A stretch of DNA of 62,996 bases, counting the filler, from Asterionella formosa (Eukaryota): assembly GCA_002256025.1 (NCBI GenBank). It is 14 parts of 14 records of this genome, joined end to end, with 100 filler letters (N's around TTAATTAATTAA, not from the genome) between each part and the next. Parts side by side here need not be neighbours in the genome. Positions count along the whole stretch, not along the records: positions 51,237 to 52,619 come from NKIB01002710.1; 13 more parts are not named here. One strand, given 5' to 3'. The notes beneath the pieces are model-generated. The model was not told the origin of the DNA. It was given only the letters and a program-made list of their open reading frames with translations, and ran no database searches. Position 1 is the first letter of the stretch. Each line of letters starts with the position of its first letter. The position numbers and the translations under genes were made by a program. This document shows positions 2,605-52,428 of the stretch, one piece after another.

Positions 2605-3310
2605 TTATGAATGAGTTCGTTTTTAAAGTTTTGATGTTGGTGCTTTTCGTTTTGGCAAGTTGTTTGTAATCTTGTTTATTGTCTTGCCTTTTGGTCATTG
2701 TTGCCAACACTAACACGAGTGAACTACCTTGTTCTACAGAATTGAAAATAATGCATGGAAGCTCAGATAAATGAGGTAAGGACGGCCAACCAATATTGTT
2801 TTGCGTGTCAATCGTTGTATTATCAATTAAGCCCCTCTAACATATTGCTTTTATATCTCCCCTATTTGTGGCAATCGTTGCTTGTCAGCCATCCTTGAAT
2901 CAGCCAAGTACAATCAGCCAGATGCTAGTAAGACTGTTGCAGCCGCTAATGCTGTAAATTTCGTGATTAAATTTTGAATGGAGGTTGTTTTGAAAGTTTC
3001 TATGCTGACTCTTTCTTGTTTGTATGTTGTCTGTATTTCATTTATTGTCTTGCCTTTTGATTATTCTTACCAACACTAACACAAGTGATCTACCTTGTTC
3101 TACAGAACTGAAAGTTATGCGTGGAAGCTCAGCAGATATAGCAAAGCGAGGTAAGAACAAGATAGTTTTGCGTGTTCATCATTGTTGTTATCGATTAAGC
3201 CACTCTAACATATTGCTTGTATATCTCCCCTGCCTATTTGCAGGAATCTTTGCTTGTCAGCCAACTACAATTAGTCAGATGCTAGTGTTACAGCAGCTAA
3301 TGCTATCTTC
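2605..3310. repeat. Diverged tandem duplication, ~366-bp unit x2
   Basis: TTATTGTCTTGCCTTTTG...CTACCTTGTTCTACAGAA...GCTAATGCT recurs, with anchor GTCTTGCC at 2681 and 3047. Confidence 0.8.
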
Positions 3311-3879
3311 TTTGGATAGAAAGTTGTGGGATAATGATGGGAAAATTGCCCACGCAAGCAAGCGAGCAAAGCAGTGATATCAGCGTGCTGTTCAGCAATT
3401 TATGCAACCACTGGTATTAGTAGTGTCACTAGCTAGTCATGTAAAGTAAATATAGTTCTGTTAGATACCACAACAAAAATATTAATATTGCAATAGTATT
3501 TCCATTTTGCTTTGCTCATTCATAGAAATTAGTTGCAAACAAAAATCGTGGTCATTGATCCAGAAATTATGAGATCAGACATACAAAAATATTGTTAGTT
3601 GGCCCCAAAAATTATGTGGGTTTCTAGAATAATTATGGAAGTTGTCGAAACTATTTTAGTTGACTCTTAACATCTATATTATGTGATGCATCACATTTAA
3701 TATGCGATGTCGTCATACCCTTAAATTATGTACGTAGCCAAATTCATCATATTGAGAAACCCAAATAATTAATTTGGGTGATCATATTTGACTAGCCTTT
3801 TTTCTTGCAGCTGTCCCAATAATCGGCGTTGTAAATGTTTCCAGTGTAGTTTCAAGATGCATCCACAGTCAATATATCG

Positions 3880-40220: not shown

Positions 40221-42931
<2,711 letters not shown>

Positions 42932-51236: not shown

Positions 51237-51303
51237 AACCCTAACCCTAACCCTAACCCTAACCCTAACCCTAACCCTAACCCTAACCCTAACCCTAACC
51301 CTA
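51237..51303 (+). repeat. Telomeric repeat (CCCTAA)n, ~11 units, at contig start
   Basis: Perfect TTAGGG-complement array running off the contig end. Confidence 0.95.
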
Positions 51304-52260
51304 TATGCCACCCTCTACTTTGCAATTCACGAGATACAAACCATCCCAATGTTTCCACAAATATCCTTCTACAGAAGGTATATTGATGATTGCTTCATAA
51401 TCTGGGTCCCTACATCAACTTCCAATATCGAGGATAACAAAACACACAACTCGTTTCTCAACTCGATGAATACCTTTGGCATACTTAAATGGAATGCAGA
51501 ACCACGACAGTTATCTACAACTTTCCTGGATCTCACAATCTCTATCAATAAACACACCCGCTCTATTGATACCACACTTTTTGAAAAATCCTTGAATCCC
51601 TATCTCTATATACCACAACATAGTGCACACCCTCCTGGTGTCCTTCGCGGTCTTATTGCTGGAATGATTCACCGGATCTACCATCTAACAACAATTGACA
51701 CACATTTCAAAACTGCAATCCACTCTTTTTACAAACGCCTACAACTCCGAGGTTATTCGGATAAAACCCTTCTACCCATTTTTAACACATACATCAAACA
51801 GCTATATGTTAACAAATCGAACAAAACCAACACGGCCACTCAGAGAACAGACACACATACAGAACAATGCGTGTTCCTCCACATGCCATTTCATCCGAAT
51901 AATCCCCCCTCATCTCACATTCAACAAATTTTCAGAGACACTATACTCTCCCCGGGTAAAGAACCAATTCTTACCACCCTACGGAACTTCTCCGGAAAAC
52001 AATGTACCATCCAACGGTTGATAATCGCTTATAATCGCCCTAAAAACATTGGGAATTATACATCACCACGGAAATTGAGATCGGACACCACTTCAGTAAG
52101 TACTCACTTACTTACGATACAACTTGATACTACACGGGATACATCAACCTCTACGAGGTCCATGCTACCTTCCCCTCCTACTATCAATACTGCCTCCACT
52201 CCTGGTGTAATTTCACAGCCAACCACGCCTGCCCAACCCCCCGCACACACCATGACTTAA
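51304..52260 (+). CDS. 5'-truncated Penelope-like reverse transcriptase without GIY-YIG endonuclease
   Basis: YATLYFAIHE (just after motif B'), YRRYIDDCF, FLDLTI, LFEKSLNPYLYIPQHSAHP and IAYNRPKNIG, then an S/T/P-rich tail and stop; no GIY-YIG motif. Confidence 0.9.
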   Translation, partial: YATLYFAIHEIQTIPMFPQISFYRRYIDDCFIIWVPTSTSNIEDNKTHNSFLNSMNTFGILKWNAEPRQLSTTFLDLTISINKHTRSIDTTLFEKSLNPYLYIPQHSAHPPGVLRGLIAGMIHRIYHLTTIDTHFKTAIHSFYKRLQLRGYSDKTLLPIFNTYIKQLYVNKSNKTNTATQRTDTHTEQCVFLHMPFHPNNPPSSHIQQIFRDTILSPGKEPILTTLRNFSGKQCTIQRLIIAYNRPKNIGNYTSPRKLRSDTTSVSTHLLTIQLDTTRDTSTSTRSMLPSPPTINTASTPGVISQPTTPAQPPAHTMT

Positions 52261-52269
52261 ATAAAACAA

Positions 52270-52353
52270 GACTACAGATTCAAGCCAACTGATGAAGCCC
52301 CTTCAGGCGAAAAGTAACATTAGTCTCATTACTTTTTGGCAACTTAAGTAGTC
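52270..52353 (+). ncRNA. Type I hammerhead ribozyme
   Basis: GACTAC..GCCAA-CUGAUGA-A-GCC(CCUUCA)GGC-GAA-AAGUAA(loop)UUACUU-U-UUGGC..GUAGUC. All three stems pair; predicted cleavage after 52335. Confidence 0.85.
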
Positions 52354-52398
52354 ACCCCATCGTCGCTTGGATAATAGTCATTGTAGCCCTCACACATA

Positions 52399-52428
52399 CC
52401 CTAATCCTAACCCTAACCCTAACCCTAA
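52399..52428 (+). repeat. Internal telomeric tract (CCCTAA x5, one variant) at the 3' end of the PLE
   Basis: CCCTAA TCCTAA CCCTAA CCCTAA CCCTAA. Confidence 0.9.

Follow-up and report, generated by a model that had tools for sequence, protein, structure and literature searches.

The closest described counterparts of the locus analysed here are the hammerhead ribozymes of Penelope-like elements (PLEs). In telomere-associated, endonuclease (EN)-deficient PLEs of fungi and protists, the hammerheads were described as being of type I, with a large helix III and active as monomers, and one fungal PLE hammerhead cleaved at 1 mM Mg2+ (Cervera and De la Pena, 2014; PMC4209133). As these ribozymes are presented there, no tertiary interactions are recognisable in them. 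The PLEs Athena and Coprina attach to G-rich overhangs via reverse-complement telomeric repeats located beside a 3' hammerhead (Craig et al., 2021; Arkhipova and Yushenova, 2019; PMC8557442, PMC6431247). According to the same sources, the 5' ends of their copies are cut by telomeric repeats, the copies form head-to-tail arrays, and the cleavage is termed auxiliary. The arrangement of a hammerhead with reverse-complement telomeric repeats behind it is already published, in these accounts, as the 3' structure of telomere-attaching PLEs.

In PAc, an EN+ PLE, hammerhead mutants left insertion in vitro unchanged, and cleavage required protein; the account of this element reports no RNA-seq reads ending at the cleavage site (PMC11167929). 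Cleavage triplets are described to obey the NUH rule, with GUU among the active sites (PMC3138052), and GUC is given as the commonest natural triplet (PMC1636495). The (+) hammerhead of CChMVd is reported to tolerate an extra base, A10, with a moderately lower rate of cleavage (PMC1636495).

The element and its chromosomal setting

The stretch of DNA analysed here, referred to as the window, comprises 62,996 nucleotides from Asterionella formosa. Its contigs are separated by 13 linkers, found from 22552 to 61614, in each of which two runs of 44 N flank a 12-base word that contains stop codons in every frame. The pieces from 45300 onward measure 1382-1385 bp and are arranged by descending size, and those side by side here do not adjoin in the genome. 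The features of the contig that bears the hammerhead are collected in Table 1, together with the motifs found in relatives of the element.

Table 1. Features of the element and its hammerhead motif in the window, and traits of the related motifs on other contigs. Positions refer to the window unless another contig is named.
Feature	Position	Strand	Details
Host contig, NKIB01002710.1	51237-52619		1383 bp; bears the hammerhead and the element
Terminal telomeric repeats, (CCCTAA)n	51237..51303	+	cap the 5'-truncated element; extend to the contig start
5'-truncated reverse-transcriptase (RT) ORF	51304..52260	+	from motif B/YIDD to a Ser/Thr/Pro-rich C-terminus; no endonuclease domain
Stop codon of the RT ORF, TAA	52258-52260	+	
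Distal stem I, 5' strand	52270..52275	+	pairs with 52348-52353; GACUAC/GUAGUC; 6 bp; pair probabilities 0.97-1.0
Internal loop of stem I	52276..52283 and 52341-52347	+	8 nt and 7 nt
Proximal stem I, 5' strand	52284..52288	+	pairs with 52336-52340; GCCAA/UUGGC; 5 bp
Core C3-A9, CUGAUGA	52289..52295	+	
Extra unpaired A between A9 and G10.1	52296	+	
Stem II	52297..52308	+	52297-52299 with 52306-52308; 3 bp; G10.1-C11.1 first; 6-nt loop
Core G12 A13 A14 (GAA)	52309..52311	+	
Stem III	52312..52334	+	52312-52317 with 52329-52334; 6 bp; A15.1-U16.1 first; 11-nt loop
U17	52335	+	predicted cut between 52335 and 52336; triplet UUU, 52333-52335
Element 3' tail	52336..52398	+	63 nt; begins with the 3' strands of stem I
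Short reverse-complement telomeric tract, CCCTAA-type	52399..52428	+	30 nt; element 3' end
Traits of the window motif			extra base A after A9; triplet UUU; possible distal stem I
L004 motif			no extra base; triplet UUC; 54-nt loop III
L015 motif			extra A after A9; triplet GUU
L013 motif			extra A after A9; triplet GUU
L016 motif			extra U after A9; triplet GUU
L003 motif	3133-3190 (L003)		extra A after A9; triplet GUU; base inserted in CUGA-N-GA; covariance model only, 21.8 bits

Along the contig, the telomeric repeats pass directly into an ORF that opens in the middle of the polymerase domain, and this truncated RT ORF is followed by the hammerhead, the 63-nt tail, the CCCTAA tract and unrelated inner sequence. 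The extended hammerhead starts 10 nt after the stop codon. The predicted cleavage site is located 63 nt upstream of the CCCTAA tract, in agreement with the initial annotation of this DNA, which had placed it upstream of the tract; a cut at this site would part the ORF-bearing RNA from the tract. The locus combines a telomeric position, a 5' truncation capped by telomeric repeats and reverse-complement repeats beside a hammerhead at the 3' end. The window copy, which lacks its 5' part, was inserted at the end of a chromosome. A blastn search of the window with the contig returned only telomeric-repeat matches and no second copy of the element. Head-to-tail arrays with short telomeric spacers were seen on contigs of relatives and in the public run X4 (see below).

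Elsewhere in the window, a long open frame on the minus strand (40224-42827) encodes the catalytic domain of a glutamyl/glutaminyl-tRNA synthetase and a C-terminal tRNA-binding domain, as recognised by Pfam. Another open frame, of 368 aa, is located on the plus strand of its own small contig (45300-46403) and contains a Cys/His-rich stretch near its C-terminal third; a Pfam match was not obtained for this frame. Conceivably, this frame is a piece of another retroelement.

At E<=1e-3, the 319-aa translation of the RT ORF matched 3836 cluster representatives, of which 198 reached E<=1e-30, and 209 longer relatives were present among 2615 candidates. Among the 120 of these relatives that were listed, most were 560-800 aa long, and most of those were encoded on contigs of ~3-4 kb. 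The window ORF carries YIDD, and the consensus of the relatives' alignment shows YIDD, the DKG-like motif DKNLGP and GL.F near the N-terminus; motif names of this type are those used for PLEs in PMC8557442. Profile searches were largely silent. The local Pfam contained no match to RT or GIY-YIG in the window ORF, four homologues and the relatives' ORFs, and the precomputed families PF28514 and PF26215 were not matched in the local scan either. The absence of a Pfam match to the GIY-YIG endonuclease in both the window ORF and the 795-aa ORF of L004 is as expected of an element without endonuclease. Sequence and profile searches of the PDB gave nothing relevant and no RT match. The predicted structure (mean pLDDT 77.7) showed weak fold matches, none at E<=0.001, the best of which were reverse transcriptases of group II introns and retrons (best E 0.014). 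The nearest clusters in a protein atlas, which serve as a lead and not as a test, are RT-named, contain DUF8422 and HTH_animal and derive mostly from Rotifera and Basidiomycota, which we take to be the host phyla of Athena and Coprina.

Relatives of the element were collected on seven distinct contigs (L001, L003, L004, L005, L013, L015 and L016; 23,778 bases). A scan of prokaryote assemblies with the protein alignment revealed four loci with 35-40% protein identity on MAG contigs, which presumably are eukaryotic and were binned by mistake, and further pieces were obtained by searching those three assemblies. A metagenome scan with one protein as the query yielded one distant locus, L001, with 22% identity, and no relatives were found among viral contigs. 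In the full-length relatives L004, L015 and L016, a first ORF of 390-496 aa, for which no Pfam match above the cut-off was found, overlaps the RT ORF in another frame. This overlap fits the ORF1-plus-frameshift layout described for EN-less PLEs (PMC8557442). Judged by layout and motifs, and not by phylogeny, the element is probably an endonuclease-less PLE of the Athena/Coprina kind, with the hammerhead at its 3' end, as had been supposed at the outset.

The stretch or part of it is contained in 20 of the 24 runs listed, which are labelled lake, river, freshwater or algae, and five of which are recorded as RNA. Four runs were examined, all as assembled contigs, which by their nature cannot show RNA ends. 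The RNA-library contigs of X1 and X8, from two lake-water samples of one study, both cover the motif; they differ from the window at 4 and 2 positions, respectively, all outside 52270-52353. They are unbroken over 52335/52336, but DNA may be present in RNA libraries and transcription is not proven thereby. In the DNA run X4, 575 contigs matched, and their summed depth peaks at 52318-52353, at several times the depth over the ORF. One X4 contig runs from 52383 via a few bases and telomeric repeats into a copy starting at 51331, which constitutes a head-to-tail array with a telomeric spacer.

Several loose ends were observed in these runs. At 52311, 52321 and 52322, other upstream sequences are joined to the same 3' end in X4; they may represent copies with very severe 5' truncation or members of other families, perhaps non-autonomous ones, with the same tail. 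In X7, a loose end before 52321 carries a variant of the upstream half of the motif, in which the 3' strand of stem II, GAAA and the start of stem III are kept and loops II and III differ. This variant looks like the hammerhead of a sister family. A different junction, of an RT-coding fragment to telomeric repeats, was found behind 51689 in X1, X8 and X7, where a 92-nt relative of 51598-51689 (12 differences) runs into telomere-type repeats.

The hammerhead motif and its relatives

The stems and core described in the initial annotation were all found in the sequence at the positions given, with one correction: the extra unpaired A at 52296 had been overlooked. The conserved CUGANGA ... GAAA core is present (52289-52295 and 52309-52312), with this one extra A after A9. 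Helix I is open, helices II and III are capped, the pairs G10.1-C11.1 and A15.1-U16.1 are present, and the triplet UUU (52333-52335) conforms to NUH. The motif is complete and has a stable helix III, which bears out its description as a full type-I hammerhead. Thus, 52284-52340, or 52270-52353 in its extended form, is a genuine type-I hammerhead motif, the cleavage of which is predicted from its sequence.

How often such a motif arises by chance was assessed with a type-I descriptor (CTGANGA, 0-1 inserted base, stem II of at least 3 bp, GAA, A15.1-U16.1, stem III of at least 3 bp, H17 and stem I of at least 4 bp). On both strands of the window, the hammerhead site was the only match. In 300 dinucleotide shuffles of the window, 0.027 matches per window were obtained, with any match in 8 of the 300, and no shuffle contained a match with stems of at least 5/3/6 bp. 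The folding energy is unremarkable. Over 52270-52353, the hammerhead fold (-14.8 kcal/mol) lies 2.1 kcal/mol above the MFE fold (-16.9 kcal/mol), which is a different one, and the pair probability of stem II is 0.28; the folding z-score of the motif region, -1.42, was reached in 17 of 200 shuffles, so the region is not unusually stable. The distal 6-bp stem alone appeared in 192 of 5000 flank shuffles, and the distal stem I with its internal loop, present in the window, is without a clear counterpart in the relatives' motifs. Contacts between loops I and II, as proposed in the initial annotation, are conceivable.

Rfam did not recognise the motif: hammerhead families gave no match at the gathering score in the whole window and none at E<=10 in 52200-52420 (221 bases). 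They also gave no match on the relatives' contigs L001, L002-L005 and L013. As L002-L005 and L013 contain three of the relatives' motifs (L003, L004 and L013), all of which were passed over, the Rfam miss reflects the reach of the models and carries little weight.

In the relatives, a descriptor with stems of 4/2/4, whose thresholds were chosen after the matches were known, identified four motifs, all on the sense strand and all between the RT stop and ORF1 of the following unit. Shuffled sets contained 0.017 motifs per set, and none of 300 sets had two or more. Covariance models were built in addition. Model R1, made from L015 alone, ranked 52284-52340 first among the window matches (16.4 bits) and did not find the L004 motif, with its 54-nt loop III and no inserted base. 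Model R2 was made from L013, L015 and L016 aligned by R1, with the window sequence excluded. With R2, a fifth relative motif was added, in L003, and 52284-52340 scored 27.3 bits (rough E 2e-6), which was the top score in 77 kb, both strands included, the next window match reaching 13.1 bits. The search with hammerhead models that the initial annotation had suggested was therefore negative for those of Rfam and positive for the covariance model built from relatives only. In L001, neither the descriptor nor the covariance model found a hammerhead, and L005 extends only 104 nt beyond the stop codon, which makes it uninformative in this respect.

MAFFT alignments of the hammerheads were structurally wrong and were discarded, and a model-guided alignment was used instead. 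In this five-sequence alignment, 97.7% of the cells are paired and seven of the nine model pairs change on both sides, figures which lean towards the structure since the alignment was fitted to it. This level of covariation was reached by none of 500 shuffles, and controls with slid partners were 24-46% paired. The pairs G10.1-C11.1 and A15.1-U16.1 are invariant in all five aligned sequences. The catalytic core nucleotides are all kept in four of the five relatives' motifs. U17 is found in four of the five and so is the extra nucleotide after A9. The motif is thus conserved in the relatives, and its stems covary there. Judged by these shared traits, the hammerhead is a member of a subfamily characterised by U17 and an extra nucleotide after A9.

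Further peculiarities were noticed on the relatives' contigs. L004 contains tandem units (~290-400 versus 3730-3833) that are 97.5% identical over 441 nt, and in the upstream unit U replaces A9, a substitution that would be expected to kill catalysis. In L003 (2860-2919) and L013 (442-503), long near-perfect hairpins are located just past the RT stop, which caused spurious microRNA matches in Rfam. Such a post-stop hairpin has no counterpart in the window copy, since its stop codon is only 10 nt before the hammerhead.

Cleavage and the alternatives

Probably, the motif is a real hammerhead of the subfamily with U17 and the extra base, located in the 3' untranslated end of a telomere-attaching EN-less PLE. 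The ribozyme would cut read-through or tandem transcripts after U52335 and before U52336, with a 2',3'-cyclic phosphate and a 5'-OH as the resulting ends, and would so trim the unit RNAs, whilst RNAs retaining the tail together with the CCCUAA tract would pair with the G-rich telomeric overhang and be copied by the RT of the element. It is extremely improbable that the motif is a chance look-alike without biological meaning. The silence of Rfam and the unremarkable folding energy would suit such a reading, but it is contradicted by the shuffle controls in both the window and the relatives, by the covariance model that finds the site with the window left out, by the covariation across relatives and by a location that is just as the literature predicts. 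The UUU triplet deserves separate consideration. It could be a copy-specific lesion, the copy being dead and truncated and its cleavage site decayed, and the initial annotation had raised the possibility of a mutation that let this copy insert. The copy is indeed 5'-truncated and cannot be autonomous, and GUC is the commonest natural triplet. However, U17 occurs in four of the five motifs of relatives whose RT is 35-40% identical, which makes UUU a trait of the clade and not a lesion of the window copy, and UUU satisfies the NUH rule. The X1 and X8 contigs, furthermore, are identical to the window over 52270-52353, all their differences being outside it. The idea of an enabling mutation is not supported by these observations, and a copy-specific lesion is very improbable.

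A possible, though rather unlikely, alternative is that the fold acts mainly as a structural 3'-terminal module, which presents the tail and the CCCUAA tract to the overhang or is recognised by the RT, with self-cleavage being negligible or protein-aided in vivo. This would agree with the PAc hammerhead, which needs protein to cleave and is dispensable for insertion in vitro, with the RNA-library contigs that are unbroken across the site, with the sub-optimal combination of U17 and an extra A, and with the consideration that cleavage would detach the ORF-bearing RNA from the tract. Yet a pure structure would not demand the catalytic core, which is kept in four of the five relatives' motifs, and monomers of a fungal PLE hammerhead with this architecture cleaved at 1 mM Mg2+. 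More doubtful still is a route in which the ends of the cleaved unit RNA are ligated to form a circle, so that the tail and the CCCUAA tract come to lie just downstream of the re-joined hammerhead, and the overhang primes reverse transcription, multiple rounds of which produce head-to-tail arrays with telomeric spacers. L004 and L015 do contain full-length tandem units with one or two CCCTAA-like spacer units 72-79 nt past the cleavage site, the X4 junction has the same order, and circular RNAs and rolling-circle routes are described as having been proposed for PLE-linked hammerhead retrozymes. On the other hand, no circular junction was seen on the assembled contigs, which by their nature would not reveal one, the tandem units of L004 differ by 2.5%, unlike the products of a single rolling event, and the truncation points vary (~51304 in the window, 51331 in X4), which fits successive separate telomere additions. 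It is equally improbable that the U17 and extra base kept by the clade result in slow or reversible cleavage and a re-joined circle, on which overhang-primed reverse transcription would build arrays; if true, PLE hammerheads, retrozyme circles and telomere extension would be joined in one mechanism. Should the hammerhead trim unit RNAs, as we prefer, U17 and the extra A may make cleavage partial instead of complete.

Comparison with known systems

The locus adds a clean case of the 3' structure that joins a hammerhead to telomeric repeats in EN-less PLEs. The organism is a eukaryote that is represented by sequences in freshwater samples, and the element is present in RNA libraries. The variant core, with U17 and an extra base after A9, is common to divergent relatives and escapes the Rfam models, and a descriptor or model for this core would uncover more such elements. 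Since cleavage would remove the tract that pairs with the telomere, the case also keeps alive the question of what use the ribozyme is to telomere-attaching retroelements, a question that can conveniently be addressed with a motif as short, stable and monomeric as this one.

Like the hammerheads of fungal and protist EN-less PLEs described in PMC4209133, the window motif is of type I, has a long stable helix III and is located at the telomere in a 3'/repeat position. As in those hammerheads, as they are characterised there, no canonical loop-loop motif was recognised in it; unlike the hammerheads presented in that account, its stem I has a possible distal extension. With the hammerheads of metazoan EN+ PLEs and PAc (Poseidon), it shares the type-I fold, the PLE context and doubt about the need of cleavage for mobility (PMC4209133, PMC11167929). 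Those metazoan hammerheads, however, are described as having little or no helix III and acting as dimers or with protein, whereas helix III of the window motif has 6 bp. Like the CChMVd (+) hammerhead (PMC1636495), the window motif has an additional A inserted between A9 and G10.1 whilst its core is otherwise canonical. The CChMVd ribozyme, however, is described as viroid-borne and of type III, and its triplet is GUC, in contrast to the type-I motif with UUU in the window; the context is unrelated.

At the level of the whole element, the 5' truncation capped by telomeric repeats and the head-to-tail arrays are like those of Athena/Terminon of bdelloid rotifers (PMC6431247, PMC8557442). The differences from these elements, as they are portrayed there, are in detail: their repeats are ACACCC/TCACCC and are located 'immediately downstream', whereas those of the window are CCCTAA and are located 63 nt past the cleavage site, and Athena/Terminon are giant, whereas the window element is small, the relatives' units measuring ~3.4 kb. 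Thus, the window copy matches the published layout except for the type of repeat, the 63-nt tail and the small size.
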